The notes below the pieces were generated by a model. The model made no database searches. It was given only the letters and a program-made list of their open reading frames with translations, and was not told the origin of the DNA. Shown piece by piece: positions 10,525-59,532 of a stretch of DNA of 64,000 nucleotides. The DNA is from a marine bacterium AO1-C (GTDB taxonomy: Bacteria > Bacteroidota > Bacteroidia > Cytophagales > Microscillaceae). The position numbers and the translations under genes were made by a program. The stretch lies in assembly GCA_001890965.1 (NCBI GenBank), contig MLAY01000008.1:296341-360340 (forward strand), given 5' to 3'. How positions within the stretch are numbered: the first letter of the stretch is position 1; the number at the start of each line of letters is the position of its first letter.

Positions 10525-10773
10525 ATGAAATCATTGCAAAAATTCAAAAAGCAAGTACTCAATAACACAGAGCAAAGGTATATCAAAGGAGGGGATTCTT
10601 TTCAGGAATGTGGCAATATGGTATACTATCATGACAACTACCGTTGGCAATTTTCGGGCTGTTATCGAGTAATTCTAAGAAATGATGGATCAGCTATTTA
10701 CCAAGGTTTGACTCAGCATGGTATTATGACCCTTCATTGCCCACCAAAAAACCAATTAACTGCCCCTGATTGA
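10525..10773 (+). CDS. GG-leader peptide precursor (Bacteroidetes double-glycine type; RiPP or bacteriocin candidate)
   Basis: Leader MKSLQKFKKQVLNNTEQRYIKGG, then a 59-aa core with three Cys. It matches the MKK...L......IKGG pattern of GG-Bacteroidetes natural-product precursors. Confidence 0.7.
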   Translation: MKSLQKFKKQVLNNTEQRYIKGGDSFQECGNMVYYHDNYRWQFSGCYRVILRNDGSAIYQGLTQHGIMTLHCPPKNQLTAPD

Positions 10774-10831
10774 TTAAACACAGGGATCAAATTTATTAAA
10801 CAGTAAGTATACAACCCAATTTATATCTCTA

Positions 10832-11086
10832 ATGAAAAAACTTCAGAACTTCCAACATCTGACACTTTCCCAACAGGAGAAAAAGAGTATCCTAGGAGGA
10901 ACAACTTATACTCGCTATACCTGCAAAAGCGCAAACTCCAGGCTAAAACCATTTGGAATTATCGCAAGCAGTGAAGAAAATCTCGCTAAACAAATAGATC
11001 ATTTAAACGAGAATGGTGCTGACATTACATACTGTTCCGTTGTATCTAGTAGCAATTCTCTTGTTGGTTTAGATAGTCCAGGCTGA
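10832..11086 (+). CDS. GG-leader peptide precursor (paralog)
   Basis: Leader MKKLQNFQHLTLSQQEKKSILGG, then a 61-aa core with two Cys. A strong terminator follows. Confidence 0.65.
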   Translation: MKKLQNFQHLTLSQQEKKSILGGTTYTRYTCKSANSRLKPFGIIASSEENLAKQIDHLNENGADITYCSVVSSSNSLVGLDSPG

Positions 11087-11148
11087 TAAAACAAAGCGCT
11101 GTCCCATAATAATTTTTCAATAAAGGTTATTGTAAACAGTAGTACATA

Positions 11149-11184
11149 CCTGACAGGTTTCCAAAACCTGTCAGGATATCTTTT
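11149..11184 (+). terminator. rho-independent terminator after the second GG precursor
   Basis: Perfect 12-bp stem cctgacaggttt / aaacctgtcagg followed by atatctttt. Confidence 0.6.
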
Positions 11185-11195
11185 CAAGCCATTCT

Positions 11196-12611
11196 TTAAT
11201 CACAACTATCCGATTTCTCTAAAAACACCCTACTGCCACGATCAAACTGCTCTTCATAACGTTTGCGCATCTTTTTGATTTTTTCACAACTGACCTTATC
11301 CAGTAAAAAGTTATATACTTTGGAAATCTTCATTGGTCTACGTCGATAATCATTCGTGGCTTCATTGGTTTGCATATAGTCATAAAACAACGATTCATAA
11401 AAAGCGGTGATCTGCTGCTGCATTTTCGCTGGATAGAAGTCATAATTCTCATTGACTACTCGCTTTACCCTATATTCATTATCCCAGTAGCTTTCTACAT
11501 TCAACAGTTCGTTCAAATGCCTTTGTACCGCCTCATGATTGCCAATAAGTAGGAGAAATTCTACCGCACTTTTGACTCGCTTTACACGTGTACCCTGCAA
11601 AACCCGAATGCTTTTGGCTTCTATTTGTTCAATGTAACGTTTCTCGAGTTTCGTTTCAGTTTCATTATTCATCTTTATTCTTTCCAGAAAATAAGCAGTA
11701 GCCACATCCTCAAAGGTTCCTCCCCATTTACTCACCAAGGTAGCATCTAGCTTTTGTACTTCTTCTTTCTCCGATAACATCAGAAACAATTGAATATAAT
11801 TCGGTATCTGCTTTTTCATAAAGCCTCTGTTTGACTGCAGAAACTTACCCGCTTTTTCTTTGGCTAGCTTCTTCCAGTCTACATATTTATCTTTAATCTG
11901 ATTGATTCGTTTGGGGTTAAAATATGCCTCAGCCAATGCTCTATTGGGCCATTGGTCAAAAAAGGCAATGGTTTCCTGCTCGCTTAAGTTCTGTTGAGAA
12001 AAATACTGCACAAAGGCCTGGTCGGCTGGGGTTTGCACATTTCCTGAGATGATCCGTACTCGATTGTGAATTACGTCTTGTAAAAAGGAGACCTCGTTGG
12101 GCAAACTGGTCAAATCTGTTTGGCTGAGTGATTGTTGTTCATATTCTTTTCCATAAGGAGACTCATAATATAGTTTCCCTATTTTTTGCAAAATCACCTG
12201 CGTTTTGTCTTCATAAGCCGCTGCCAGATAATAATTGTTTGAGGTAGCTTTTAGCGTTACTTTATCTTCATATACTTCTAAATCTTCTTTGGCCTTGGCG
12301 GGTAAGGTTTGCACCAAATATTCTTCTCCTTCAATCTCTACTTCCACCACTACCCGATAAGAGGATGATGTCTTGGATACATCAAACAATTTTCGGCTGT
12401 TGCGTCGATAACGAGTTGTTTTTTTGAGCGCAGCTCTAATAGTTACAGGAACGCCATTCACTTTTATTTTTTTGGAATCAGTTTTAACCACTCGGGTAAG
12501 GCTACAGCTCCTTTGGCAGCTTCCCAATACTAAGAGTGTCAAAAAAGTAAGCCAGGAATACGCCCGAAAGCGGGGTAGATGGGTTTTGATAAATTGTAGA
12601 TTTATATTCAT
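11196..12611 (-). CDS. hypothetical lipoprotein
   Basis: 471 aa. N-terminal signal with a lipobox-like LVLGSCQ. No recognisable catalytic motifs. Confidence 0.55.
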   Translation of the reverse strand: MNINLQFIKTHLPRFRAYSWLTFLTLLVLGSCQRSCSLTRVVKTDSKKIKVNGVPVTIRAALKKTTRYRRNSRKLFDVSKTSSSYRVVVEVEIEGEEYLVQTLPAKAKEDLEVYEDKVTLKATSNNYYLAAAYEDKTQVILQKIGKLYYESPYGKEYEQQSLSQTDLTSLPNEVSFLQDVIHNRVRIISGNVQTPADQAFVQYFSQQNLSEQETIAFFDQWPNRALAEAYFNPKRINQIKDKYVDWKKLAKEKAGKFLQSNRGFMKKQIPNYIQLFLMLSEKEEVQKLDATLVSKWGGTFEDVATAYFLERIKMNNETETKLEKRYIEQIEAKSIRVLQGTRVKRVKSAVEFLLLIGNHEAVQRHLNELLNVESYWDNEYRVKRVVNENYDFYPAKMQQQITAFYESLFYDYMQTNEATNDYRRRPMKISKVYNFLLDKVSCEKIKKMRKRYEEQFDRGSRVFLEKSDSCD

Positions 12612-12840
12612 AATTATTGATAGTTAAGGAAATGGTATGTAGGTATTTAGAGAGACACTAGACCTTCTTAGATATAGCTAGAGGCTATTATTGGGTATTT
12701 CACACAACAAATTGACCGATTTGACCAGTATTTTGGGCAAAAATTCTAAAGCTTTTTTCTGTCAACCCTCTACTTTTGAAGCATTTAAGTCAGCAAGATA
12801 TTTCGCTACTTGAAAGTAAGTTAACCCTAATTTTATTTTT

Positions 12841-13026
12841 ATGAAAAAGTTAAAAAAATTATCATTAAACAAAGTTGTGATCTCTAAACTAGATGCTACA
12901 AAAGTTACTGGCGGAACTGCTGGATCTGGGGTAAGCAACCCTCCTTGGTGTCCTGATGCAAGTTTAGGATGTGATACGGCTGACCCAAAGCCCGCACTAA
13001 CACTAAAAGGTTGTCAAAATAATTAG
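12841..13026 (+). CDS. GG-leader peptide precursor (near-consensus GG-Bacteroidetes leader)
   Basis: Leader MKKLKKLSLNKVVISKLDATKVTGG, then core TAGSGVSNPPWCPDASLGCDTADPKPALTLKGCQNN (three Cys, Pro/Gly-rich). A hairpin lies downstream. Confidence 0.75.
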   Translation: MKKLKKLSLNKVVISKLDATKVTGGTAGSGVSNPPWCPDASLGCDTADPKPALTLKGCQNN

Positions 13027-13270
13027 CATACCTGATTCAGTTTTTTAATTAACACTGAATCACCTATTCCTATTTGAAAGGCTGTCTCGTTAAGAATTGT
13101 TAATTGATTCAAAACTACTACGAGATAGTCTTTTTACTATTTCATCCGCACTAGTTTCAGACTACCTAATCTTTAGATAATTTTCACCTAATTTATCCCG
13201 CCTCAATACGTATAGCTGAGACTAACCATCTATATGTATTTATCTTCCTGATTTTCCCTACCTTTATCAT

Positions 13271-14464
13271 ATGAACGACTCCTACTTCCAACAACTCAAT
13301 CAAACCCTCCGATCTTATAAAAGAGCCATTCCATCTTTGATGATCGATTTGGATCGGCTAGACCATAACCTGGCTACACTCCAAAGTATGATCACTCCTG
13401 ACACAAATTTTAGAATTGTGGTGAAGTCGTTGCCCTCTATTCCTTTACTAGATTATGTAATGGAAAAATCGAAAACAAACCGATTAATGGTGTTTCATCA
13501 ACCATTTTTGTCTACCCTGGCCCAGCATTATGGTAGCAAAATAGATATTTTGTTGGGTAAACCTATGCCTGTGCAAACCATCCGCTATTTTTACGAAACG
13601 TTGGACAAACAAAGTAATTTCCAACCTCCACAACAATTGCAGTGGCTCATAGACACCAAAGCACGGTTGCATCAATACCTTGAACTGGCCAAAACACTCA
13701 ATCAAAAGCTACTGATTAATGTAGAAATAGACATTGGGCTACATCGGGGAGGCCTGGGTAAACTGGAAGCTTTGCGAACTGTATTACAGGCAATCGCTGA
13801 CAATCCTGAGCACCTCACGTTTACGGGTTTTATGGGGTATGACCCTCATATTGCGGCCCTACCCAAAGCCTTACGTTCTCCTAAAAAATCGTTTCGTCTG
13901 GCCAATGATTTTTACAAAAGCTGTATCGCCTTGGTACAACAGGACTTTCCTGAACTTTGGAACAAAAACCTTACTTTCAATGGAGCGGGAAGCCCTACCC
14001 TGGCCTTCCATCAAACCGATGCATCGGCTCCCAATGAGGTAGCTGCAGGCTCAGGATTGGTTAAGCCTACTCATTTTGACATTCCCACCCTCAAGGACTT
14101 CAAACCCGCTTGTTTTATTGCCACCCCTATCCTCAAAAAAATGCAGGGAACTACACTCCCTATGCTCGAGAAATTCAAGGGGGTAATGAATGTATTTAAG
14201 CCCGCATTTAAGCAATCTTATTTTATCTATGGAGGGTATTGGAAAGCCGATTATTGCTACCCACCTAAAACTTCAGTGAATACCATCTTTGGGGCTTCTA
14301 CCAACCAATCTATGGTAAACACTTCGGCTAAGGTAGCATTGGAAGTAGACGATTTTATCTTTTTGCGCCCCTCTCAAAGCGAGTTTGTGTTTTTACAGTT
14401 TGGAGATATGCTTGCGTTTAGAGATGGAAAGGTGGTGGAAGAGTGGGAAGTTCTCAAAAACTGA
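13271..14464 (+). CDS. type III PLP-fold enzyme, alanine racemase N-terminal domain family (DSD1 / D-threonine aldolase-like)
   Basis: 397 aa. The N-terminal pattern PSLMIDLDRLDHNL....FRIVVKSLP resembles the P.L.IDLD.L..N...LRPH.KTHK signature, with the candidate PLP lysine in VVKS. Confidence 0.55.
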   Translation: MNDSYFQQLNQTLRSYKRAIPSLMIDLDRLDHNLATLQSMITPDTNFRIVVKSLPSIPLLDYVMEKSKTNRLMVFHQPFLSTLAQHYGSKIDILLGKPMPVQTIRYFYETLDKQSNFQPPQQLQWLIDTKARLHQYLELAKTLNQKLLINVEIDIGLHRGGLGKLEALRTVLQAIADNPEHLTFTGFMGYDPHIAALPKALRSPKKSFRLANDFYKSCIALVQQDFPELWNKNLTFNGAGSPTLAFHQTDASAPNEVAAGSGLVKPTHFDIPTLKDFKPACFIATPILKKMQGTTLPMLEKFKGVMNVFKPAFKQSYFIYGGYWKADYCYPPKTSVNTIFGASTNQSMVNTSAKVALEVDDFIFLRPSQSEFVFLQFGDMLAFRDGKVVEEWEVLKN

Positions 14465-14616
14465 ATCTACCACTGCTTCTCTTACCTAAATGCAAGCATT
14501 CTATATGCCCTGGGAAATTCAGATTTGGGTTATTCCTGAAATCTCGTATCATTTCCCCTGTTAACCTTTCTTCCCCCTCCCCTATCAATTTATAAAACCT
14601 AAACTCATCAAAACTT

Positions 14617-15258
14617 ATGAAACATTTAATTTGGTGTTTGGCGTGTGTCTGCTTTTTGGGCGCTTGCCAAAATCTCGACAATTTATTGAATGAAAATGTC
14701 CCTTTGGGTGATCCCATTACGGCTACCTCTGGCACCGATACTACTGGTAATACCACTACTTATTTTGTAGAGCTCAATCGTTTGCCTTTGCATATTCAAC
14801 GTTTTCAGGAGGTACAACAAAGCGTAGCCACTACCCCTCAAGGAGGTGCTGCTATGTTTATTATGGCCCTGAATGTATACCAGCAATACAATCGTGAAGG
14901 AGTTAAAGCATTGGTAACTTCAGCTACGGGTCCTGCACTCAAATCTGATAGTGGCGATGAAAGCTACAACGGCTTTGCGTTACTTAGCCAGGAAATGTCA
15001 CTCATTAAAGTGCAACTACAGGATCATCCTGAACTTACCAAGGCTTATTATAAGGGGGCTACCCCTACCAATGGTTACCAGCCATCTACGCCGTTCCGCC
15101 TGGAGTTTACCAATTTGCAAGACGTAACTGGAACCAATCGTAAAAAGTTATTCGTGATTACCGCTGGGGCAGCTTCTCCGCGCCCCATTACCGTAGCTCC
15201 CGAAGGAAACATCTGGAAAGTTACCGAGTATAGTAGTGTGTTGGTAGGTGTGCAATAG
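14617..15258 (+). CDS. hypothetical lipoprotein
   Basis: 213 aa. Signal peptide with lipobox FLGAC. Confidence 0.55.
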   Translation: MKHLIWCLACVCFLGACQNLDNLLNENVPLGDPITATSGTDTTGNTTTYFVELNRLPLHIQRFQEVQQSVATTPQGGAAMFIMALNVYQQYNREGVKALVTSATGPALKSDSGDESYNGFALLSQEMSLIKVQLQDHPELTKAYYKGATPTNGYQPSTPFRLEFTNLQDVTGTNRKKLFVITAGAASPRPITVAPEGNIWKVTEYSSVLVGVQ

Positions 15259-15614
15259 CCCAATGTCATTAAGCTAAGTGGTTTTATTAGAAAAATGAAT
15301 ATTGAATATCGACCAACGAGTTTCGAATAATGAAGGTAAAACCTTGATTGATTCTTTGTATTAGGGTGTCAACGCCTTTCTTAAACCAAACATAGAGAAC
15401 TCACCACAGATAATCTTGATCAGCATTCTTTTTACTAACAAAACGACATTGGGCAATTGCCAGACTAATGTGATGCTTTCTGCTCTCCAAAAACAGATAA
15501 CTTAACTCATAGACAACACTGCTCGTTATGTTTTTATATAATAAAGTGCAAATCCAGTTTAAGTTTAAAAAACACTGATTGAAACTGTATAAAAACCTCG
15601 AATGACCTTGTCTA

Positions 15615-16565
15615 ATGAAATATCTCACGCTGTTATTAATTTTTTCTAATTGTTGGTTTGCCAAAGCCCAAACGGTAGAAACTGACCTTCAGAAAATGGG
15701 ACTCAAACATTTGGTAAAAAAAGTAACTGATAGCATTGTATATACCAAAAAAGGAGGGGCATATCAAATAAACCATGAACATTACGTCTTTGATCGTCAC
15801 GGTTTTATGACAGAAAAACAGTTAGATGCTAAGTGGGCTATACAAAAATTTACCCCTAAGTACTTTAACGGGAAAATCATTGAGAACAGAAAAACAGGCT
15901 ATCGTTATAACAAACAAGGCAAAGTAAAGCTAGAGTATTCGATCAATGCCAATGGTAAGATGTCTTCTAAAAGCACTTATGAATATGATGTCAAAGGAAG
16001 GCTCATCAAGCAGAAATCTTATATTTATGAAGGAGGAACAACTGTTTTTCACCCAGAAACTGATGAATACGAGTTTATTTATGACAGCAAAAGTCGTGTC
16101 ATCCAGGTAAATCATTCAGAGTCGTCTCATCCTTATAAATTGATTATTTACGACGATAAAGCGCGAACCAAAACTACCAAAATATTTAGATTAGGCGATC
16201 GTCTTTATATAATGGAAGTGATTCAATACGACCAAAAAGGGAACCCTGTAAAAGAGACGCTGAAAAACTATACTAATTCAGAGGATGCCTCTATCATCTT
16301 AAAGAAATATGATGCTTACAACAATTTAATCGAGAAACAATATTATGCCTCTGCTGCTTACCCCAAGCCTTATGGTATCATTAATTACAAGTATGATCAA
16401 CACCAGCAACTTATTGAGCATATCGAGTTCAACTACAAGCAAGAAATAATTACTAAAGATCAATACAAGTACGACAATTATAACAACTGGATACAAAAGA
16501 TCGCTTATTGGAAAGATCGATATCAAAAAACTATCTACCGAACTATTGAATATTTTGATAAATAA
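15615..16565 (+). CDS. small secreted YD-repeat (Rhs-like repeat) protein
   Basis: 316 aa with a signal peptide. It carries repeated Y.YD..G.L motifs (YEYDVKGRLIKQ, YKYDQHQQLIEH, KYDAYNNLIEKQ, QYDQKGNPVKE, YKYDNYNNWIQK) and no C-terminal toxin domain. Confidence 0.55.
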   Translation: MKYLTLLLIFSNCWFAKAQTVETDLQKMGLKHLVKKVTDSIVYTKKGGAYQINHEHYVFDRHGFMTEKQLDAKWAIQKFTPKYFNGKIIENRKTGYRYNKQGKVKLEYSINANGKMSSKSTYEYDVKGRLIKQKSYIYEGGTTVFHPETDEYEFIYDSKSRVIQVNHSESSHPYKLIIYDDKARTKTTKIFRLGDRLYIMEVIQYDQKGNPVKETLKNYTNSEDASIILKKYDAYNNLIEKQYYASAAYPKPYGIINYKYDQHQQLIEHIEFNYKQEIITKDQYKYDNYNNWIQKIAYWKDRYQKTIYRTIEYFDK

Positions 16566-16583
16566 GACAAGTCTTGGAATCAG

Positions 16584-17640
16584 CACGTCGTGAGACAGTT
16601 CGGTTCCACACGTGTGTAGCCACAGGCGTTGCGACTACGGGGCATCGCTCCCTCATATCCACAATAACAGCATTGATCCTTCCTCAGAATGAACGCCCAA
16701 AGCGCCGTAACTAACGACATTCTTATTTAATCTGGGTAGTTTGACTGGGGCAGCTGCTTGCCAGCGGGAGGTTTGGCACCTAGATGTCGGCTCGTGCCGT
16801 GAGCAAAATGGTTAAACACCAAGGCTTAGGCTGTTTGCTCATTAAAATGTCTGGCTTTCTGGATAAACACCCTCGGAAAAGTCGAAGCAAACAAGGCTTT
16901 TCAATGAATATTTATGGTCTAAACCTGTTGTTTTGAGAAGCTCGTTTATCAATCCCCTTGAAAGAATTGATGGGGACTCACCCAAGGTATTTTTCATCCA
17001 CAAAACAGTAAAATAGCCACATTTTTAGAGTCGTTTTTACGAATCAGATGAGGAAATTATGCAGTAATTATCACACACCATAAAAACACCTCTAAATACC
17101 TGATATTTTTGATCATTTCAAGGTTACTTTTTTAGCAACATCTGGTTACTTTAATCGCTGCACTTTAAGTTTACCCCAAACTACTATTTTCGCACTTAAG
17201 GGTATTCTTAACGTACTTTTCGGTTTAACTTTCATCATCAAAAACCAAGGTTTTCAATAGGTTTTCTGGGAAATCAACATGTCACTTTAGAGGTAGCATT
17301 TCATATATACCCAAAACCTCTAATTTAGCCCCAAACATCACCTGTTTGTACCCTAAAACAAGTCCTATTTACAGTTTTTTCCACCTTAAAATCGTGGGAG
17401 TTGACAAGGGTCTACATTACTGCATAAATTGTAGGTTTTTAGAGTAACATATCCCTATAAAAACTATAGTTTTTGGGTCAAATTGTAATACCAATGTCGG
17501 TGGCTCATATACTGGTCCCAGTGATAAGGTTTGGTAGACATTTTAAGCACTATAACGGGACTAAGGTAGCAAAATTCTTTGTTGGGTGGTTTGTTTTCTT
17601 AAAAGCGAAGTGCTCTACTAACTGAGTTTGTGAGATTATA
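16584..17640 (+). pseudogene. degenerate, rearranged 23S rRNA-like relic (fragments of domains IV-VI)
   Basis: ORF-free. Segments at about 65-80 percent identity to universally conserved 23S motifs: cacgtcgtgagacagttcgg (cf. AACGUCGUGAGACAGUUCGG); ggtagtttgactgggg; gtttggcacctagatgtcggctc (cf. GUUUGGCACCUCGAUGUCGGCUC); caaggcttaggctgtttgctcattaaaatg (cf. CAAGGGUAUGGCUGUUCGCCAUUUAAAG); and, further downstream, atgtcggtggctcatatactggtccc and cactataacgggactaaggtagcaaaattctttgttggg (cf. ACUAUAACGGUCCUAAGGUAGCGAAAUUCCUUGUCGGG). The order is scrambled and large spans are missing. Confidence 0.5.
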
Positions 17641-17765
17641 GGGTAAGTAATTACCAAATTCGTTATTTGAGTCACACACCTTTGACCTTCCCCTTACCAA
17701 ACAACCGCTCTGGCAACTGTATTCTGAAGATCACGGAGTGTTTTTTCAGTAAATACAGTTGGTAA

Positions 17766-17812
17766 GCATCCCTGATTGTCACGCAAGAGGTCGCGGGTTC
17801 GTATCCCGTATA
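17766..17812 (+). pseudogene. tRNA-like 3' fragment (anticodon loop ttGTCac plus T-arm), probable tRNA-Asp relic
   Basis: Canonical T-arm ggtcgcgggttcgtatcccgt preceded by variable loop aggtc and anticodon loop T-T-GTC-A-C. The D-arm is weak and the acceptor stem does not pair, so it is not a functional tRNA. Confidence 0.35.
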
Positions 17813-18000
17813 TTTTTGTTTTATTAATTACTGGAATGATGAGGTATCACACAGAACAGTTTTCATCTGTAATTTATCACCTTCAGTTATTTTTTTACGT
17901 AAGTTAAATTCTATGGTAGATTGCATTACATAATAGTGATGAACAAACTACTTCTCATAAACATACATAGTGATATTTCAAACCCAAAAACCGCCAACCG

Positions 18001-21000: not shown

Positions 21001-22548
21001 TTTAACTTTAAGGTACCTCCTACAATTGATGAATCTTTGCAAGTAAAATTGGTAGCCTATCCCAATATTTTAGGCGATTTGATGGATAGCATAGCAGCCA
21101 TCATAAAGCAACCTTATGGCTGTTTTGAACAAGCATCCGCTAACACCTACCCCAATATACTGGCACTGCAATTTTTAGAAACCTCTGAAAACACTGATGC
21201 CTATATTAAGCAGAAGACCCTTGTATATATTGAAGAGGGATACAAAAAGCTAATCTCCTTTGAAACCCATCAACAAGGTTTTGAGTGGTTTGGAATGACT
21301 CCTCCTCATGAAGGTCTCAGTGCATTTGGTTTACTTGAATTTTTGGAGATGAAAAAAGTATATCCCCAAGTAGATGATGCGATGATTGATCGCACTACGA
21401 AAATGTTGCTATCACGTCGCGACGGGAAAGGTGGCTTTCACCAAAACCAAGGGAAGTATGGCTTTGCAGGCGCATCCAAAGAAGTAACCAATGCTTATTT
21501 GGTGTATGCGTTGGCACAAGCTGGGATAAATGATTTAGAAAAAGAATATCATACAGCTTATACTGAGGCAATTCAAAGTGAAGATGCTTATCGTATGGCT
21601 CTAATGTCACTTGCCTCTACTGCCCTAGATAAACCTACTGCCGCTCTTGAAATATTAGGCAAGCTTCGTATACAGGTACAACAGCTTAAACCTGGTCAAC
21701 TAAAAGCTGACCACAGTCTTGTACGTTCTTATGGGAAATCGCTGCAAATAGAAACTTGTGCATTGATAGCTTTGGCAGAAATGCACCAACCCACGCCTGA
21801 TGTTACTTATTTGACACCCTTGATCGAATACATCATTTCCAATCGAAACGGAGGCTATTTTGGTTCTACTCAGGGTACTATTTTAGCTTTACAAGCATTG
21901 ACTAGATATACCACATTGCAAACCAAACAAGCTCCTGACGGTTGCTTGTTGGTATATAAAGATAGTACCTGCATTGCGAGTGTAAACTACAATAAATCAC
22001 AAACGCAAAAGTTAGCGCTTGACGGGCTGGAAAAACACGTGAATGAAGGCGAACACAACATTGAGGTGACCTTTGAAGATCCATCCCAAGCAATTCCTTT
22101 TACTCTTAACATATCCTACAGCGCTGCAACTCCTAATTCAAGTCCAGATTGTAATATCGCACTTAGTACTCAGTTAGCGGTTAGAGAGGTAGTTACTAAT
22201 CAAACCGTGCGACTCACGACAATCGTAAAGAACAAAAAAGAGGAGGGTCAGCCATTTACCATTGCCTTAGTAGGTATTCCTTCTGGATTGAGCCCTCAAC
22301 CTTGGCAATTGAAAGCCTTGCAAGAAAAGGGCTTAGTAGATTTCTATGAAATCCACGACAGCTATATTGCTTTTTATTTCAGAGAATTGGCTCCTCAGGC
22401 AATTAAAACTTTACTATTGGATCTCAAGGCAGATATTCCTGGCACCTACAAAGCCCAGGCAAGTGTGGCCTACTTGTATTATACCAGCGAACACAAACAT
22501 TGGCAAGAAGGAACCGCTGTTACAATATTGCCAGAAAAAGGTTCATAA
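18001..22548 (+). CDS. alpha-2-macroglobulin family protein (bacterial thioester-containing protein, MG-domain repeats), no signal peptide
   Basis: 1515 aa. Thioester-type motif PYGCFEQ about two-thirds of the way along (cf. GCGEQ / CLEQ). An N-terminal beta-sandwich repeat region and a carboxypeptidase-regulatory-like segment (GQVVYKEGKPKPVKAKVVLFE...GKDGKFIFENIP). An in-frame stop sits 9 codons upstream of the ATG and there is no hydrophobic N-terminus. Confidence 0.65.
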   Translation: MKTFFNANSDPDFQKKLTTYYQKHTPEKIYLHTDKPFYAPEEYIWFSGYLLGEKDTLPEDLSSIVHVELFDPKESSLGELKLPVINGKFHGDFYLNRRAVGGLYKIKAYTRWIAGALETSFEKTLQVQTVIKPRLLLTLDFDREAYGSGDEVTAQLKARDLRDKPIAVRKIDYTLHLGGKVHSSHETTTDGKGEAQIKVKLPENLSNNDGLLTLFFEHQGVSESISRAVPIVLNNITLDFFPEGGYWIAGVSGKMAFKALNEFGKPADIEGIVVNESGKEITQFKSFHQGMGAFEMQPVVNEHYQVKITKPSGIDTQYTLPEATSDEYGLSAEQLTPDQLKINVFNPTNHAAYLVVQSGHKVMHSEKIKTIKGLSSQTISTNHFPIGISRISLFDAKRRIRCERLVFVNPHKQLKVVMQARQRNYQPRQKVEVDILTTNEQGTPVAANLSLAVVDDKIFTLANDKQDNILSGLLMSAELKGKVHEPNFYFQPDEPKATPALDYVMLTHGWRKYQWDIVMAHSVATHTNKWKQKVVKGQVVYKEGKPKPVKAKVVLFELGGAYRKLETVTGKDGKFIFENIPTNIPVQLFAQKQGTSAKLCKIELDNHGRSESSSDFDIYYSQIEMERLKKMKPSEQQFYKASRVAKSIGSRALSLGEFDFSSTFAEFDKFEERILEAEKSNELTFFDDSWPEALLETEEEPFDVDKDIEKLRRWLNEGVKPYFTNQNPTQSKKKRPHFINYSINNRSDLTEEVLFYLDLDKIESLKLYYDYKLNINTSETISSEIKPKRSPLMGKFLNSIQYSEVNVYRPKVYDTKDQSPEVRTDFHNTIYWNPKVQTNQEGEATLTFWNNDSLTTFRVVAEGLGQNNQLGRAECTYFTKLPFELTAKIPPYFLVNDHLELPIYLTNNTTEVVEGNLSLVTPNAIRFEQTSLSIQLPPQTTQTVYFKGVALNALSVGKQEKLSVKFTNPLYNESYSQPIKILDKGFPAELAYSGNQPNNQFNFKVPPTIDESLQVKLVAYPNILGDLMDSIAAIIKQPYGCFEQASANTYPNILALQFLETSENTDAYIKQKTLVYIEEGYKKLISFETHQQGFEWFGMTPPHEGLSAFGLLEFLEMKKVYPQVDDAMIDRTTKMLLSRRDGKGGFHQNQGKYGFAGASKEVTNAYLVYALAQAGINDLEKEYHTAYTEAIQSEDAYRMALMSLASTALDKPTAALEILGKLRIQVQQLKPGQLKADHSLVRSYGKSLQIETCALIALAEMHQPTPDVTYLTPLIEYIISNRNGGYFGSTQGTILALQALTRYTTLQTKQAPDGCLLVYKDSTCIASVNYNKSQTQKLALDGLEKHVNEGEHNIEVTFEDPSQAIPFTLNISYSAATPNSSPDCNIALSTQLAVREVVTNQTVRLTTIVKNKKEEGQPFTIALVGIPSGLSPQPWQLKALQEKGLVDFYEIHDSYIAFYFRELAPQAIKTLLLDLKADIPGTYKAQASVAYLYYTSEHKHWQEGTAVTILPEKGS

Positions 22549-22699
22549 CATTTAGGGGGGTGTAGAAAATAACTTTTACAAAATTCTTGTGGGTATCTGT
22601 ATTTGGGTGCCCATAAGCTTACAAAACTCAATCTTACGCAAAAAGCGTTCATAAAAATTATAAGAGAATTGTGTAAATGATTGCTTAGGTAAGAGCTTA

Positions 22700-22954
22700 C
22701 TACATCGCTCTTCTCCGCTTACGACCAGAGTTTATTTTAGTGTTGTTTCGCTCAGGCTTCGAGGAGGTGTTGAGGTGGTTCCAATCCAATTCATCATCAT
22801 CTCCTGCCAAACCACAATCAATGGCAACCTGGGCAAGTGCTCCAGGTTGCGACCAATCCAATGCGTTATCCTGGAATTGGCCTAGTTCTTCGGGCTTGTT
22901 CCAGTCGGGCACAGGAGGTGGCGCAGGGACAATATATCTTCTTTTTTTCTTCAA
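22700..22954 (-). CDS. hypothetical small protein in a locally GC-rich patch
   Basis: 84-aa ORF that is basic at both ends and acidic with a DW motif in the middle. It overlaps an antisense ORF (22740-22961 on +) that is low-complexity. Which strand codes, if either, is unclear. Confidence 0.25.
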   Translation of the reverse strand: MKKKRRYIVPAPPPVPDWNKPEELGQFQDNALDWSQPGALAQVAIDCGLAGDDDELDWNHLNTSSKPERNNTKINSGRKRRRAM

Positions 22955-23100
22955 TGAATAGATCGGTGATTTCTATAGCTTTATACGCATAAATGGTCAG
23001 AGGTTAATCTCATAACGCAAAATAATAGGTTTCATTTGTAATTTCAGCACACATTTCTGTTAAATTTGACTATTTCAAGTTTTTTCTCATAATTTACTTT

Positions 23101-23622
23101 ATGACCCAGGCGTTCAACGTGAGTACTGAAGGTGTACTAGTTCTTTGTACACAAGCAGGTTTAAAAGGTTATTATCAGGATAAGACCTTCGATTATGACT
23201 ATCCTGAAGGCATTTTGCCATTGATAAATCAAGGAATTGCATTAGCTATTACTACTGAGAGCGGAGATGTTGTATGCTTAAAAGTAACTTTTGATACACC
23301 TTCTGATGTCAGCAGTTTTCAAGATTTAGGTACCTATCAGATACAAGTACAAGCTGAAAACACTTTATTGTTCTTAGATCACGCCACTTTTACTCAAATT
23401 TGCGACTGGCATAAAGGGGATATCAGCAAGTATGAATTTGATGAAACATATAATCCGAAAGTTACGCTGGAAGATGTACCTGCAGGTTGGTATCAAGTAA
23501 CCGTATATGGCCAAACACTCGATGAATTTGAAGAAAAAGAGTGTTATATAGAAATGATCCTCATTTTCACTCCTATTAACCACCAAACAAATCTGAAGAT
23601 TAAAGATATAGCCGCTATTTAA
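23101..23622 (+). CDS. hypothetical cytoplasmic protein
   Basis: 173 aa with no signal or TM segments. It is convergent with a GG precursor; a shared hairpin lies between them. Confidence 0.5.
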   Translation: MTQAFNVSTEGVLVLCTQAGLKGYYQDKTFDYDYPEGILPLINQGIALAITTESGDVVCLKVTFDTPSDVSSFQDLGTYQIQVQAENTLLFLDHATFTQICDWHKGDISKYEFDETYNPKVTLEDVPAGWYQVTVYGQTLDEFEEKECYIEMILIFTPINHQTNLKIKDIAAI

Positions 23623-23630
23623 AGTATGTC

Positions 23631-23664
23631 CTCCAACAAAAAACCAGGTTTGCAACAAACCTGG
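23631..23664 (-). terminator. rho-independent terminator after GG precursor 4 (also directly 3' of the plus-strand gene)
   Basis: Perfect 9-bp stem ccaggtttg / caaacctgg. On the minus strand it is followed by tttttg. Confidence 0.55.
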
Positions 23665-23696
23665 CTTGGTGTAATCAATATTTTCCAGACAATGCC

Positions 23697-23933
23697 CTAT
23701 TCAAAACTAAAAAATGGTACTTGCTCACAAACCACCATTGTAGGATGATCTTTCATAAACCTACGTACTCCTCTCTTTGTATCTTCAATCTCCGCAGGAA
23801 AGTCATGGCCATTCACATCAGTACACATGTACTTCTTCTTGTCTTTCTCCTTCGATCCAAAAAGCCCACCTTTAATATTTCTTGCCTGACTGTTAGATAA
23901 TCGTTGTTTACTGAATTTTTCAATCTTATTCAT
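23697..23933 (-). CDS. GG-leader peptide precursor (paralog)
   Basis: Leader MNKIEKFSKQRLSNSQARNIKGG, then a 55-aa core with two Cys (KYMCTD...VVCEQ). Confidence 0.7.
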   Translation of the reverse strand: MNKIEKFSKQRLSNSQARNIKGGLFGSKEKDKKKYMCTDVNGHDFPAEIEDTKRGVRRFMKDHPTMVVCEQVPFFSFE

Positions 23934-24048
23934 ATGTTTTGAAATTGAGTTGTTGAATCATTTGTAATGGTACAAAACTAGTAACAACACCTCAAAAGTA
24001 GTTGGACATATCGCTCAGATACTTGGACAAATAGTGCTTTATGGGCTA

Positions 24049-25224
24049 CTAGCGAATTTTATCTTTTAATAACCCATCTTTACGAATGATATATTTAAAT
24101 TTTTCGTAAGGCACAATAACTTCATATCCGTTTGGTAAGCAAGGTTTTGGCAAACCAATCGCATAGCTATAACAAAGTTGAATCCCAGCATCTAATATCC
24201 TAAAGGCATTGCTTAGGTAAAAGATATCCCTACAGGTCTCATCACCTTCCTTCTCTCCCATGACAGTCTGAAAAGCCACCTGCTCAAAATCCTCTAGCGA
24301 ATCATCAATCAACAAATCAGCTAACTCAATTTTTTTTCCTGTGAATTTATCATAGTGGTCAATTTGCACAAAAGTCTCAGGACGAGCTTGGCCCACAAAC
24401 CAGGAGCTGTTATTTTCTACTGTCACTAAATATTTAGTCTCGGTCAAAGAAGTGGCGTCCTCTATCCACCAATTATTCCCTATTGAATGTTTTGAAAACC
24501 AGTGATGCAATGTATCTACCACCGCCTCTGGGCTAGTTATTTTATGAATTACTCCCATTGCAGGACTTCCATAAGTAGTAGGCTTTTTAGGAAGCTTATC
24601 TATCAAATATGCTGGAGCTTTGATGATTTCTGGATAGGATAAGGTATAATGTACACAACCATTACTGTGAGGCTCACACCCCTTATAACTTTCAGAAAAT
24701 TCACGTTGTACAAATGTTACTACTGCTTTATCAAATACTTTAGCCTCTTTATAAAACGCAATTTTATAATTGGCATCAAACGAAAGCTCAAGCAATACTT
24801 TTGCATAGTATCCTCGCCAGGAAAAAGACAATGGTACCTTGGCCAGATACCCTTTCACCTTTAACTTATCTAAATCTACCTGATAATTTACCTGCTTCTT
24901 TGTGCTTAAAAAACGATTCACTTCTGCCGCAATCTGGGCAGGAGTCACATTACGCATTCCAATATATTGTCCTACTTTTGGAGAGAAATTATCTCGAATG
25001 GCTGCTTCATAGGCCTCATTATTCAGTTTTTCGCAATAATCGCGAAGAGTAGCCTTCATCTTATCTTGAGTAATGGCCTTTACATACTCTGGTTGCTCAT
25101 CTTCCTCCACTTCCTTCTTTTGGGTAGATTGGTTTTGTGATTGATTATTCTTGGTTTGATCGTTTTTAGATTGGCAACTTGTAACAATCAGTGCCCATAG
25201 TATCCAATAAGTAAGTGTTTTCAT
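24049..25224 (-). CDS. hypothetical lipoprotein
   Basis: 391 aa. Signal with lipobox (LIVTSCQS) followed by an N/Q/E-rich linker. Confidence 0.6.
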   Translation of the reverse strand: MKTLTYWILWALIVTSCQSKNDQTKNNQSQNQSTQKKEVEEDEQPEYVKAITQDKMKATLRDYCEKLNNEAYEAAIRDNFSPKVGQYIGMRNVTPAQIAAEVNRFLSTKKQVNYQVDLDKLKVKGYLAKVPLSFSWRGYYAKVLLELSFDANYKIAFYKEAKVFDKAVVTFVQREFSESYKGCEPHSNGCVHYTLSYPEIIKAPAYLIDKLPKKPTTYGSPAMGVIHKITSPEAVVDTLHHWFSKHSIGNNWWIEDATSLTETKYLVTVENNSSWFVGQARPETFVQIDHYDKFTGKKIELADLLIDDSLEDFEQVAFQTVMGEKEGDETCRDIFYLSNAFRILDAGIQLCYSYAIGLPKPCLPNGYEVIVPYEKFKYIIRKDGLLKDKIR

Positions 25225-25291
25225 AACTATGATTTGTCAGGTAAATTTTAGTGACTATTAGCAATCAATTAAACTACTTGATTAAAGGTAA

Positions 25292-26605
25292 TTATAAATT
25301 TTGCGTCTTGAAAAAGGCTAATAGGTGTGGTTGTCCATCTTTTAAGACATATATTTGTACTGTACTAAAAAGATTATTGATTTCGCTTATTGAATCAAGT
25401 TGCATCTCATTTACAATTGCCTCAAAATCAGCTTCCTTAATCGCATAACTATAACGCAAAACAACTTCTGAAACATTTTCTAACGAGGTAAAATGAACAC
25501 TCTGCGTAATAGTTTTAGCTGCTTTTATTCCATCATACCCATCAGTAAATGAATTGAATAACTCGAGCGTTGTGCCTTCTTGTACAAGTTGTAAAACCAT
25601 CAACCCTTCGTCGTCAGGATAAAGCACTCCTTCCTGCTCGTCATATTCACCATGGTATTGCAGCCGTGCTGATTCATTAGCGAATTTAATTCTACGATAA
25701 ACATCTGATGGAAAAAACTCAAAACCTAACGTAGAAAGCTCTTCTGGCAGAATTTCCTCAGAAATGGAGTGTAATTTTATTGGGCCTGTAAATTGATAAA
25801 CTTGTATTACATCTGATGGGACTTCTCGCAATAAGGATTCTTCAATATCTGATTGGGAAATAAGTTGATAAAATAGTTTTTTAAGGCGATTAGGTAAGCC
25901 ACCTATTTCAATAGAATATTCTTGTCCTTGTACTGTCTTGATTTGAATCAACTGATGCCCTGGATAAACGTTTCCCTCTACTTCAATAACATCCTTAATA
26001 TTAATTTTTACAGGTTCAGAATTATCAAGGATAATAAGTGCAAGAGGAGTAAAACAATAAAGTGCTTGACTCGTCTCTACATGCCCATACACCAGTTCTC
26101 TTTTATTTAGAACAGAAGCCAACTGAGGGTATTTTCTCCCCTCTGGATAGTATTTTGCTTGATCACCACTCGACAATGTCCCAAATTGTTTGAAAGTGTC
26201 CAAAATGAGCTGTTTACGCTGTATGATCAATAACTTGTTGGGATACAAGATTCTCAGAAAAATCACCCTGATCAAAAGAATTATTTCACCTACAACAGTT
26301 AGGACTAAAGCAACCAGTATTCGCGCTAAAATTTCCTGTCCTTCACTATCAGGTATTTCATTTTGCCCATAATACACCAGTAGAATAATAATAACAACAG
26401 TGAAACTGATGAACATCAGATATTTTAGTATAAGTTTATCCCACGTCTTTATTGACAAAGGTTTCTGCTGAGTCTGATTCATATGCATTATTGGTTCGAT
26501 GTTAAAAAAGACTCTCCAGCCAAACCTTATAAAATTAGCTGTCGTCTTCAAAAATTTGTTTACCAAAACTAATAGTAACTCCTCAAAAACATCTGGACAT
26601 ATCAA
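25292..26605 (-). CDS. membrane protein with two TM helices and a cytoplasmic domain (bacterial PH-like topology), unknown function
   Basis: 437-aa ORF. The likely true start is an internal M near 26488 (MHMNQTQQ...), followed by two hydrophobic helices and a ~330-aa soluble domain. Confidence 0.5.
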   Translation of the reverse strand: MICPDVFEELLLVLVNKFLKTTANFIRFGWRVFFNIEPIMHMNQTQQKPLSIKTWDKLILKYLMFISFTVVIIILLVYYGQNEIPDSEGQEILARILVALVLTVVGEIILLIRVIFLRILYPNKLLIIQRKQLILDTFKQFGTLSSGDQAKYYPEGRKYPQLASVLNKRELVYGHVETSQALYCFTPLALIILDNSEPVKINIKDVIEVEGNVYPGHQLIQIKTVQGQEYSIEIGGLPNRLKKLFYQLISQSDIEESLLREVPSDVIQVYQFTGPIKLHSISEEILPEELSTLGFEFFPSDVYRRIKFANESARLQYHGEYDEQEGVLYPDDEGLMVLQLVQEGTTLELFNSFTDGYDGIKAAKTITQSVHFTSLENVSEVVLRYSYAIKEADFEAIVNEMQLDSISEINNLFSTVQIYVLKDGQPHLLAFFKTQNL

Positions 26606-26646
26606 TCAGGCGTTTGGACATATTGTTCTTTGTAAAAGTATAGTCA

Positions 26647-26675
26647 ATAGATCACTGGTAATAAGACGATTATAC
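26647..26675. repeat. 29-bp direct repeat, copy 1 (atagatcactggtaataagacgattatac)
   Basis: 27 of 29 positions identical to 26830-26858. Confidence 0.55.
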
Positions 26676-26829
26676 TAATCCACTACAATAATCCGTACAA
26701 GTATACGGCTGGAAGCCTCCTAATATCACTCACTCGGCTAGAGTCGAGCGAGAACGTATTCGTCGCTTGCCTCGGGGCAAGGGGCAACTATCATAGGGCC
26801 TCTGGTGTACGGGTTTTCTCAAAGGGCCA

Positions 26830-26858
26830 ATAGACCACTGGTAATAAGACGATTACAC
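26830..26858. repeat. 29-bp direct repeat, copy 2 (atagaccactggtaataagacgattacac)
   Basis: Direct repeat partner of 26647-26675. The 154 bp between the copies are GC-rich with several short hairpins. Confidence 0.55.
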
Positions 26859-26859
26859 A

Positions 26860-26888
26860 CAAAAACCCTGACAGTAGTACTGACAGGG
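26860..26888 (-). terminator. rho-independent terminator after GG precursor 5
   Basis: ccctgacagt-agt-actgacaggg with a T-run on the minus strand. Nearly the same stem recurs at 27429-27451. Confidence 0.55.
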
Positions 26889-26954
26889 TTTGGTGATTTT
26901 TATCGAAATAACTATACTAAAAACTTTAATTCATTTTGGTTGGTCTGATATAAA

Positions 26955-27185
26955 CTAACCAATTTCTAAAGGATTAGAATCTCTTGCAGGTAAACCATAA
27001 GGCTTGCAGTGTATTTCCCAATAATAACCTGCCAAGGCTAATGTTTCAGCGTCTCCGCTAGCTTGGGCACTTTGTGCAATTGCTGCGTTTTGATCACAAT
27101 ACTCTGCTCGGGTAACCCCTCCTTTAATATACATTGCTTGGTCTTTGGTCAACGCGTGGGATTTGAACTTATTCAAAATTTGCAT
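26955..27185 (-). CDS. GG-leader peptide precursor (paralog)
   Basis: Leader MQILNKFKSHALTKDQAMYIKGG, then a 53-aa core with two Cys (EYCDQ...EIHCKPYG). Confidence 0.7.
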   Translation of the reverse strand: MQILNKFKSHALTKDQAMYIKGGVTRAEYCDQNAAIAQSAQASGDAETLALAGYYWEIHCKPYGLPARDSNPLEIG

Positions 27186-27422
27186 AATTATTATTTTTTA
27201 GGATTAAAGACTCGCTTCTTGACATAAACTAGAAGCATATTCAAAAATAAAGACTCTCTTCGCACCTAAATAGTATCGGTTATGCTAATAAAGAATAGGT
27301 TTATACCAATTAAGAATAAGAACTCATCTAGACTTTTAATAATGAATTATAAATCACTGAAAGAAGTGATTTTTCTTTCCTCCACTCTTTATAAATTCTG
27401 TGATAACTAAGTAGACATCAAT

Positions 27423-27451
27423 AAAAAACCCTGACAGTGAAACTGACAGGG
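27423..27451 (-). terminator. rho-independent terminator of the atp operon (after atpG)
   Basis: ccctgacagt-gaaa-ctgacaggg followed by a T-run on the minus strand. Confidence 0.6.
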
Positions 27452-27479
27452 CTTATATTATAGACAAAAAACGTCTTGC

Positions 27480-57524: not shown

Positions 57525-58259
57525 TTACCCTCCAATAATTTTTTTCAGGTTACTCTTATAGACACTTCCTATGGGTAATTCCAATTGATTGATTTTCACC
57601 ATATTTCCTTCTATCACTTGCACCTTCTTTATGTTTACAATATAAGATTTATGCACCCGAACAAAAAGGCTTTGGGGCAATGATTTTTCGTAGCTACTCA
57701 AACGCTCTAAGGTAATGATCACCTGATCGGCCAGGTGAAATTTCACATAGCTTCCCAAACTTTCCAGGTATAGTATATCCTGATAGTATACCTGGTATAC
57801 TTTCTTATCCGATTTGAGAAAAATACTCTCTTGGGTGGTATTTGTTTGTGCAAAAACAGGTGGGGTTGCAGCAGGTGATGGAGTGGGCTGTTCTTTCATT
57901 TTCTTGAACTCAACTGCTCGATTCACTGCCTTGATAAATCGCTCAAAGCTATAGGGTTTGAGTAGATAATCACACACTTCTAACTCGAAGCTCTCAATGG
58001 CATATTCCTGATAAGCAGTAGTGACAATAATCAATGGTGGGTTTGCAATAGTACGCAAAAATTGTAGCCCCTTGAGCTTAGGCATGTTGATATCCAGAAA
58101 AATAAGATCAGGGGTGGTTTCGTTCAAAAAATCTATTGCCTCAAAGGCATTATAACAATTACCTATCACCTCTATACTTTGCAAACTTGTGGCAAAGTTG
58201 GCAATTACCTCATGGGCCAGTGGTTCATCATCTACAATCAGACATTTCAGCTTCATCAT
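57525..58259 (-). CDS. LytTR-family two-component response regulator
   Basis: 244 aa. Receiver domain (IVDDEPLA...LDINMP) plus a C-terminal LytTR DNA-binding domain. Confidence 0.85.
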   Translation of the reverse strand: MMKLKCLIVDDEPLAHEVIANFATSLQSIEVIGNCYNAFEAIDFLNETTPDLIFLDINMPKLKGLQFLRTIANPPLIIVTTAYQEYAIESFELEVCDYLLKPYSFERFIKAVNRAVEFKKMKEQPTPSPAATPPVFAQTNTTQESIFLKSDKKVYQVYYQDILYLESLGSYVKFHLADQVIITLERLSSYEKSLPQSLFVRVHKSYIVNIKKVQVIEGNMVKINQLELPIGSVYKSNLKKIIGG

Positions 58260-58265
58260 TCGTTC

Positions 58266-59300: not shown

Positions 59301-59532
59301 ATCTTCCTCAGCTCATTTGTTGTAATAATTCACAAAAGCAGGCGTCAGCTTTTGTTTCAGTCTTAGTAGGTTGCATGATACATTTATTGCGCAAAGATCA
59401 CCAATTTCTTTAACCAACCCCTCATTTTATCTCATCAACTGGTCATTTTCATCCACCAACGAGTTGATTCACGATAACCCCTCATTGGTGTGGGTTTTAA
59501 GGGAGTTCGTTTAAATAATTTTATAGAACACC

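Follow-up and report, generated by a model that had tools for sequence, protein, structure and literature searches.

Five small open reading frames (ORFs) scattered between mutS and the atp operon of the marine bacterium AO1-C (Cytophagales) encode putative peptide precursors with a double-glycine (GG) leader. They are designated p1 to p5 here and were studied within a 64-kb stretch of contig sequence, referred to as the window. A reading of the DNA alone, hereafter the original prediction, had singled them out, and all five are present where it had placed them, on the strands it had named:

10525..10773, + strand: p1 (BKI52_23945), 82 aa; leader MKSLQKFKKQVLNNTEQRYIKGG; 59-aa core with 3 Cys
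10832..11086, + strand: p2 (BKI52_23950), 84 aa; leader MKKLQNFQHLTLSQQEKKSILGG; 61-aa core with 2 Cys
12841..13026, + strand: p3 (BKI52_23960), 61 aa; leader MKKLKKLSLNKVVISKLDATKVTGG; 36-aa Ser/Thr/Cys-rich core with 3 Cys
23697..23933, - strand: p4 (BKI52_23995), 78 aa; leader MNKIEKFSKQRLSNSQARNIKGG; 55-aa core with 2 Cys
26955..27185, - strand: p5 (BKI52_24010), 76 aa; leader MQILNKFKSHALTKDQAMYIKGG; 53-aa core with 2 Cys

All are annotated by NCBI as coding sequences, each under the name 'hypothetical protein'. The leaders are Lys-rich and hydrophilic, measure 23 aa (25 aa in p3) and terminate in GG (residues 22-23 in p1, p2, p4 and p5; residues 24-25 in p3). None has a hydrophobic signal-peptide core, and the general description of a GG leader (15-30 aa, ending in GG, without such a core) fits every one of the five. 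The cores show no mutual similarity (best blastp E=4.4), which bears out the earlier statement that they are unrelated, 36-61 aa long and furnished with two or three Cys each. Cysteine accounts for 4.55% of core residues but for only 0.50% in the large window ORFs, which total 14,473 residues (binomial P=1.6e-8). Neither a regular-expression scan nor scans with hidden Markov models (HMMs) of all 1812 stop-to-stop segments of at least 20 aa returned a sixth member in the 64 kb.

The leader family

The relationship among the leaders was assessed with a leader HMM trained solely on peptides of other organisms, namely those of contigs L008 and L012 and of the p5 family described below. This external model scored p4 at 27.4, p5 at 27.0, p1 at 26.1, p2 at 22.7 and p3 at 14.2 bits, placing them at ranks 1-5 among 953 stop-to-stop segments of the window; the sixth-ranked segment scored 5.9 bits, and the ranking had the same outcome with the 1812 segments of at least 20 aa. 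With every ortholog of the window peptides removed from the training set, the five again took ranks 1-5, at 22.0-11.1 bits against 3.8 bits for the next segment. In a leave-one-out test, a leader HMM built from the remaining window members was searched against the 953 segments. Recovered in this way were p1 (28.6 bits, E=7e-8), p4 (23.0 bits, E=4e-6) and p5 (13.5 bits, E=0.004); p2 was marginal (7.6 bits, E=0.29), yet the top non-training match, and p3 was not recovered. Judged by these comparisons, all five fall within one broad leader family, in which p1, p4 and p5 appear clearly related, p2 related more weakly, and p3 an outlier with a different leader subtype. The earlier description of 'five paralogous' precursors thus holds for p1, p4 and p5, less firmly for p2, and not for p3.

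Curated models provide a second perspective. TIGR04149 (GG_sam_targ_CFB, for radical-SAM-modified RiPP precursors; cut-off 25) gave 13.0 bits for p1, 16.0 for p2 and 14.7 for p3, with no match to p4 or p5, while PF14406 (Bacteroid_pep; gathering threshold 25) gave 21.8 bits for p1, 15.0 for p4 and 11.1 for p2, with no match to p3 or p5. TIGR04194, the model for the grasp-with-spasm system A peptide (cut-off 33), matched p1 alone, at 15 bits, and NF038153, for the class I lanthipeptide leader L1a (cut-off 22), matched p3 at 19.9 bits. Among curated NCBIfam and Pfam models p5 had no match at all, and p4 none other than PF14406. Both TIGR04149 and TIGR04194 also describe a genomic setting. For the former this is an adjoining radical-SAM/SPASM maturase, which is absent from the 64 kb and present at the syntenic locus on L008; for the latter it is a place upstream of a TIGR04192 ATP-grasp gene, and the window has no ATP-grasp. 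By the standards of these curated families none of the five would be counted a member, and the likeness appears to be one of general leader type. In that wider sense, carried by the external HMM, the proposed match to a GG-Bacteroidetes family stands; at the curated cut-offs it does not, and the TIGR04149 search by which the original prediction had wished to be judged peaked at 16.0 bits. The broader assignment to double-glycine precursors of a Bacteroidota type is backed by the external HMM and by homologs, described below, which keep both leader and GG.

The groove of the LahT150 C39 domain holds hydrophobic leader residues -4, -7 (where Leu is required) and -12 (PMC6363468). Read from p1 to p5, position -4 carries I/I/V/I/I and position -12 L/L/I/L/L, hydrophobic in every case; position -7 carries A/A/A/Q/K in place of Leu.

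The leader of p3 deserves separate mention. Its residues 7-17, LSLNKVVISKL, followed by GG at 24-25, fit the LxLxKx5L motif, which marks the GG-ending leaders of class I LanA precursors in Bacteroidota (PMC7268733). This motif, the GG end and the Ser/Thr/Cys-rich core liken p3 to pinensin-type class I lanthipeptide precursors of Bacteroidota (Walker et al. 2020, PMC7268733; NF038153), and on the strength of its motif p3 is probably a precursor of that class. It departs from these systems in its NF038153 score, which is below 22, and in its surroundings, as the 64-kb window holds no LanB, LanC or C39 gene; p3 alone of the five fits the comparison.

Homologs of p1 and p5 in other organisms

Homologs were sought by concatenating the five peptides and searching them exhaustively with phmmer against 1.84e9 representative proteins; a word-indexed search with the five-peptide alignment returned p1-p5 themselves only. 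For p1 there was a single homolog, P0006, at 69% identity, with leader, GG and all three Cys kept. It is encoded on a coral-metagenome contig, L008, which is syntenic with the window from 8.2 to 16.8 kb, the neighbouring 475-aa, racemase-like and DUF6935 proteins being 70%, 80% and 91% identical, respectively. Between p1 and P0006, 22 codons differ synonymously only and 25 non-synonymously, a pattern which, together with the retained Cys, points to purifying selection and thus to p1 being a real gene. A comparison of the mutS-atp interval with a relative, as earlier advised, yields a p1 ortholog in which leader and GG persist.

The slot occupied by p2 tells a different story. In L008 it is filled by a different pair of GG-leader ORFs (46 and 66 aa). 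The first of these is 65% identical to p2 in its leader DNA and 35% in its core DNA, the likeness ending at the GG codons. In addition, p3 is missing from L008, where the intergenic region measures 116 bp. Turnover at this locus, as read from the aligned sequences, appears to consist of core replacement behind a retained leader, at the p2 slot, and of the gain or loss of whole genes, in the case of p3. The diversifying selection envisaged in the original prediction was not borne out: the comparison with L008 reveals core replacement and gene presence or absence, and p1 is under purifying selection. Hypervariable GG precursors among close relatives in the Bacteroidota have already been described at graspetide loci (PMC8939145).

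Directly after its DUF6935 gene, and 6-8 kb from the p1 ortholog, L008 carries a true grasp-with-spasm cluster. Its two enzymes exceed the cut-offs of their models, the ATP-grasp with 313 bits (TIGR04192; cut-off 230) and the SPASM maturase with 334 bits (TIGR04193; cut-off 175); the other members are a GG precursor, an 81-aa protein and a LytTR protein. Synteny with the window stops at precisely this point, and tblastn found no trace of the system in the window, which at the corresponding position has a 316-aa ORF, 1.4 kb without any ORF of at least 60 aa, and an alpha-2-macroglobulin gene. AO1-C does encode a grasp-with-spasm ATP-grasp peptide maturase, as NCBI names it (P0015), on another contig (520,866 bp, as against 630,636 bp for the contig bearing the peptides). 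The contigs of its closest ATP-grasp relatives, L015 and L017, contain no further short-leader peptides and no VKOR genes.

Six homologs of p5 (P0007-P0012) were found, at 40-54% identity and E-values from 3.8e-12 to 2.7e-5. The family, which spans distant metagenomes and also includes a peptide on contig L016, is characterised by a GG leader followed by V-T/P-R-x-E-Y-C ... G-D ... A-W-x-x-H-C-x-P-Y-G, a pattern into which p5 fits, and the GG, Y29, C30, G44 and C60 are invariant. AlphaFold2 (AF2), given a seven-sequence alignment, modelled p5 as a helical hairpin with helices at 26-43 and 46-59 and a mean predicted local distance difference test (pLDDT) score of 88-92 over residues 31-60. The model places both C30 and C60 at the hairpin's open end, consistent with a disulfide that would staple it. 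A Foldseek search of the model against the PDB gave no meaningful match (best E=4.9), and PDB sequence searches with p1, p2, p3, p4 and the p5 profile returned nothing at E<0.1.

The neighbours of the p5 homologs are informative. On all three informative contigs (L011, L012 and L016) the homolog lies 1-8 kb from a gene for a protein which fuses a C39-like domain, VKOR and a thioredoxin. On L011 and L016 a fusion protein of 515 or 519 aa comes within 1-1.3 kb after the p5 homolog, and neither contig (17 kb and 8 kb, respectively) has an ATP-grasp gene. On L012, a 186-kb contig from the Joint Genome Institute (JGI), the homolog P0009 is located between two grasp-with-spasm modules. It is one of three short-leader peptides there, which share near-identical leaders (MSKL[D/A]KFKEFALTKEEQSKIxGG) and carry unrelated, Cys-containing cores. 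Also encoded on this contig are redoxins, HlyD, a 549-aa fusion of Peptidase_C39, VKOR and thioredoxin, and a pair of precursors with long leaders, which lie directly upstream of the ATP-grasp genes. Proteins encoded 3' of the p5 homologs were considered as a conserved immunity-like partner and rejected, the 207-, 221- and 275-aa proteins being unrelated to one another and to proteins of the window.

In a separate observation, the closest p5 homolog (P0007, 54% identity, on L010) and the closest relative of the AO1-C ATP-grasp (P0014, 74% identity, on L015) derive from one sequencing run (Logan SRR24489651), which suggests an AO1-C-like organism that also keeps peptide and enzymes on separate contigs.

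The fusion genes considered here all lie outside the window:

L012:18309-19958: C39-like/VKOR/thioredoxin fusion
L011:10685-12232: C39-like/VKOR/thioredoxin fusion
L016:6144-7703: C39-like/VKOR/thioredoxin fusion
L018:528-2231: C39-like/VKOR/thioredoxin fusion

Proteins of this type (~515-570 aa; C39-like domain, VKOR and DsbA-like thioredoxin) are widespread in the Bacteroidota, with at least 120 homologs bearing generic names only. Their three parts are supported by profile matches to solved structures, respectively the C39 domains of PCAT1 and LahT, VKOR, and DsbA/ScsC-like proteins. The column aligned with the catalytic Cys21 of PCAT1 holds Cys in 0 of 117 members, most having N or P, and that of His99 holds His in 7 members only of those listed. 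A role as leader peptidase was thus ruled out. At least two CxxC motifs occur in every member (exactly two in 114 and three in 6, among the matches listed). From these sequence features we read the fusion as a leader-binding domain joined to a disulfide-forming module. On the contig of a Microscillaceae metagenome-assembled genome (L018), a single cluster unites the fusion, a precursor containing Cys, ATP-grasp and SPASM-sized genes, a small protein and a peptidase-containing ABC transporter (PCAT) whose QMDCG, NHFVV and ADP motifs are intact. In the literature we found no paper on strain AO1-C or on C39/VKOR fusions, and the link to the fusion is treated here as a lead outside the window, not as a result.

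Transcription units and surroundings

Folding and motif scans around the five genes gave the following features:

11149..11175, + strand: hairpin, intrinsic terminator of the p1-p2 unit; 12-bp stem; -18.8 kcal/mol, z -5.4
13033-13062, + strand: second, AT-rich hairpin 3' of p3, from folding
13076..13136, + strand: hairpin with U-run 3' of p3, likely terminator; jointly with the 13033-13062 hairpin -30.1 kcal/mol, z -5.6
23641..23667, - strand: intrinsic terminator of p4; 12-bp stem and T-run; -17.2 kcal/mol, z -2.9
26860..26891, - strand: intrinsic terminator of p5; -17.9 kcal/mol, z -4.8, then UUUUU
12771..12778, + strand: candidate promoter 5' of p3, inferred from a Bacteroidota -7 box motif (TAnnTTTG)
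23973..24000, - strand: candidate promoter 5' of p4, two TAnnTTTG boxes (motif)
27242..27249, - strand: candidate promoter 5' of p5, one TAnnTTTG box (motif)

The claim that each gene has its own terminator is accurate for p2, p3, p4 and p5, all of which are followed by hairpins with U-runs (that of p3 was missed by a simple terminator scan owing to its long loop), and inaccurate for p1. The 58-bp gap between p1 and p2 contains no hairpin (-5.1 kcal/mol, z -0.8), so that these two genes most likely form a single transcription unit. Four units, p1-p2, p3, p4 and p5, are thus the most likely arrangement on the basis of these signals. A TAnnTTTG box on the correct strand is found within 100 bp upstream of three of the five genes, with a chance probability roughly estimated at 0.003; there is none within 100 bp upstream of p1. 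A scan for sigma-70 promoters was uninformative (54 sites, with 52 expected).

Several observations concern the terminators and their vicinity. Hairpins built on the motif CCCTGTCAG...CTGTCAGGG form the apparent terminators after p5 (26860-26891) and after atpG (~27425-27455), and the perfect hairpin after p2 (11149-11175, CCTGACAGG...CCTGTCAGG) has the CTGTCAGG arm in common with them; hairpins with this arm may represent a shared terminator or an element resembling repetitive extragenic palindromes (REP). A 31-nt direct repeat, with two copies in the window (26645-26675 and 26828-26858; 94% identical, 183 bp apart), flanks a GC-rich segment of ~150 bp between the p5 terminator and a 437-aa ORF.

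A Pfam search of all ORFs of at least 120 aa places the peptide region between mutS and the atp operon and assigns the intervening genes to functions unrelated to peptide processing, namely an Ala-racemase-like protein, DUF6935, an RHS-like lipoprotein and a 1515-aa alpha-2-macroglobulin, with several others lacking a Pfam match. Pfam and tblastn together found no C39, PCAT-type ABC exporter, radical-SAM/SPASM, ATP-grasp, Lan or VKOR gene in the window, in agreement with the earlier remark that exporter, radical-SAM and lanthipeptide enzymes are absent from it. The alpha-2-macroglobulin was rejected as a conserved partner, since a scan of contigs anchored on it gave distant loci only (34-42% identity) with no GG-leader ORFs.

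The region around the end of L008 synteny has further features of its own. The 316-aa RHS-repeat-like lipoprotein ORF (15615-16565) is absent at the syntenic position of L008, an indel beside the missing grasp-with-spasm cluster. Two GC-rich segments (16575-16630 and 16762-16816), with no ORF longer than 50 aa and no Rfam match, are 86% and 78% identical in L008. Approximately 1 kb beyond the end of synteny and ~190 bp upstream of the alpha-2-macroglobulin gene, the sequence at ~17745-17815 resembles the 3' half of a tRNA (GGTCGCGGGTTCGTATCCCGT, then a T-run); ARAGORN and Rfam make no call there, and it may be the remnant of an old integration site. No tRNA genes were found in the window, and Rfam returned nothing in it, including the region from 16.5 to 18.0 kb which is free of long ORFs. 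Some 30 kb from the peptides, 57525-60498 encodes a LytTR response regulator, a LytS-type histidine kinase and an ABC ATPase. LytTR proteins adjoin the grasp-with-spasm cluster in L008 and L017, and a regulatory link between the window genes and the peptides is, by analogy, conceivable.

Competing interpretations and significance

The interpretation we favour, with some confidence though well short of certainty, is that p1-p5 are real genes for precursors of the Bacteroidota GG-leader superfamily, arranged in four transcription units, endowed with hypervariable cores and processed in trans. Under such a scheme, the hydrophilic leader of 23-25 aa would form a short helix and be held by a C39-type domain through its hydrophobic residues -4 and -12; cleavage after the GG and export of the core would fall to a PCAT whose gene lies elsewhere in the genome; and disulfides would lock the Cys-rich cores. 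For the p5 family, oxidation might be carried out by a dedicated membrane oxidase comprising an inactive C39-like leader-binding domain, VKOR and a DsbA-like domain. The products could then serve in competition, signalling or protease inhibition.

Several results weigh against this interpretation. Every curated leader model remains below its own cut-off for all five ORFs. Residue -7 is A/A/A/Q/K from p1 to p5 and not the Leu of LahT150, which suggests that the cognate C39 domains would have a somewhat different specificity. The search of the 64-kb window yielded no AO1-C gene for a PCAT or a C39-like/VKOR protein, and no AO1-C copy of the fusion is among the 120 homologs listed. Among the 1.84e9 representatives p2, p3 and p4 match only themselves, so that their coding status rests solely on leader, signals and annotation. 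The AF2 model of p1 is all-beta and unreliable (pLDDT 57), too uncertain for a fold search. Finally, the cores are hydrophilic (negative grand average of hydropathicity) and range from acidic to neutral (isoelectric point 4.4-6.9), unlike typical cationic, membrane-active bacteriocins and classical cationic pore-formers; a receptor-targeted toxin, a protease inhibitor or a signal could have such properties.

The most serious alternative is that all or most of the five are modified in trans by the grasp-with-spasm system of the genome, acquiring ester or amide macrocycles from the ATP-grasp and thioethers at Cys from the SPASM enzyme, and are therefore graspetide hybrids, not plain disulfide peptides. 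The true cluster at the same locus of the closest relative, L008, the ATP-grasp which AO1-C retains elsewhere (P0015), the position of P0009 between two modules, and the weak TIGR04194 and TIGR04149 matches all lend it substance, as do the branch 5 loci of Bacteroidota, known for several unrelated Cys-bearing GG precursors (PMC8939145). We nevertheless think it rather unlikely. Precursors directly upstream of ATP-grasp genes (L008 11644-11859; the L015 precursor; L012 6166 and 12173) have leaders of 26-31 aa with an N-terminal extension which p1, p2, p4 and p5 lack, the p5 homologs of L011 and L016 lie beside the VKOR fusion on contigs devoid of ATP-grasp, and the p5 core is predicted to fold as a helical hairpin in which the conserved residues are the Cys pair. 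A loss or replacement of the local cluster in AO1-C, leaving stranded precursors which are unprocessed and drifting, would account for the end of L008 synteny after DUF6935, exactly where L008 carries its cluster, and for the singleton status of p2, p3 and p4. Such decay seems distinctly improbable for five intact ORFs which retain their start, GG and Cys as well as terminators and candidate promoters, and one of which (p1) is under purifying selection, in a genome where a grasp-with-spasm system persists; precursors far from their enzymes are, moreover, normal in other GG-leader systems such as the prochlorosins (PMC7268733). A reading of the five as chance ORFs, or as small cytoplasmic proteins of an ordinary kind, in which the GG is no cleavage site, might be argued from the sub-threshold curated scores, and is scarcely credible given five matches of 14-27 bits to an independent model with a noise ceiling of 5.9 bits, the retention of leader and GG in homologs of other organisms within PCAT, C39-like and maturase clusters, and the enrichment of Cys in the cores.

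Comparison with described systems places processing in trans behind a GG leader in context. Branch 5 graspetide loci (Makarova et al. 2022, PMC8939145; TIGR04192/TIGR04193/TIGR04194/TIGR04149/PF14406) resemble the AO1-C peptides in the MKKL-like start, the GG end and the unrelated Cys cores behind one leader, with cores that differ even between close relatives; homologs of p1 and p5 occur in or beside such clusters, and AO1-C encodes an ATP-grasp. They differ in that the window has no ATP-grasp, SPASM, LPL-family or PCAT gene in 64 kb, and in that its leaders are short (23 aa, without N-terminal extension) and score below the cut-offs of the curated precursor models. Bacteroidetocins (class IIf; Coyne et al. 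2019, PMC6671954), the precedent that has been investigated by experiment, have a GG leader and disulfides and need a PCAT, a protein with five transmembrane (TM) segments and a thiol oxidoreductase. They share with our peptides the phylum, the GG leader and a content of two or more Cys, and their production logic is that of the C39-like/VKOR/DsbA fusion beside the p5 homologs. However, bacteroidetocins have leaders of 15-16 aa and mature peptides of ~42 aa, are encoded in a compact four-gene cluster and kill Bacteroidales (PMC6671954), whereas the window peptides have leaders of 23-25 aa, acidic and hydrophilic cores of 36-61 aa and no adjacent machinery, so that the Cys content is the sole bacteroidetocin criterion with which they agree; nor did any sequence relationship between the two groups emerge, though no search was aimed at one. 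Prochlorosins and cyanotins, served by one LanM, offer a parallel in their divergent cores behind one conserved GG leader and in genes scattered away from the enzyme, and differ in phylum, leader family (Nif11/NHLP) and chemistry.

Short leaders like those of p1, p2, p4 and p5 are found elsewhere in the Bacteroidota on Cys-rich peptides of grasp-with-spasm, PCAT and VKOR clusters, and align with the long leader over its C-terminal 20 residues. As the longer leaders are those of precursors directly upstream of ATP-grasp genes, it may be argued that short-leader peptides bypass the grasp-with-spasm enzymes. A bolder proposal, which we put forward tentatively and with the balance somewhat against it, is that p1, p2, p4, p5 and their relatives make up a class of their own, so far undescribed, of Bacteroidota mini-proteins that depend on a leader and are stapled by disulfides. 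Here the GG leader of ~23 aa would be a portable address tag, read both by the dead C39-like domain on the VKOR/DsbA-like oxidase and by a PCAT, such that cores could be swapped and genes scattered anywhere, independently of graspetide chemistry in the same cluster.

Hypervariable, Cys-containing GG-leader precursors are already known in the Bacteroidota, as are precursors distant from their enzymes in other phyla. Moderately new are the distance of the genes from processing enzymes in an isolate of the Cytophagales, the comparison in which the leader is kept and the core swapped, the p5 hairpin family and the link to the dead-C39/VKOR/DsbA fusion. Most of what is known of peptide-based competition and signalling in the Bacteroidota involves GG-leader peptides; to our knowledge, very few of these have been characterised beyond the gut Bacteroidales. 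To them the locus adds five precursors that are new, of which three are sequence orphans. Between two close relatives it also offers a clean natural case of a core exchanged while the leader stays, and, in p5, a small conserved family with a confident helical-hairpin model. As a further lead, it points to a widespread fusion of inactive C39-like, VKOR and DsbA domains, in which recognition of the leader may be coupled to the formation of disulfides. These findings do not overturn current understanding; they carry a phenomenon already described over to genes which, in a marine isolate of the Cytophagales, are dispersed and remote from processing enzymes.

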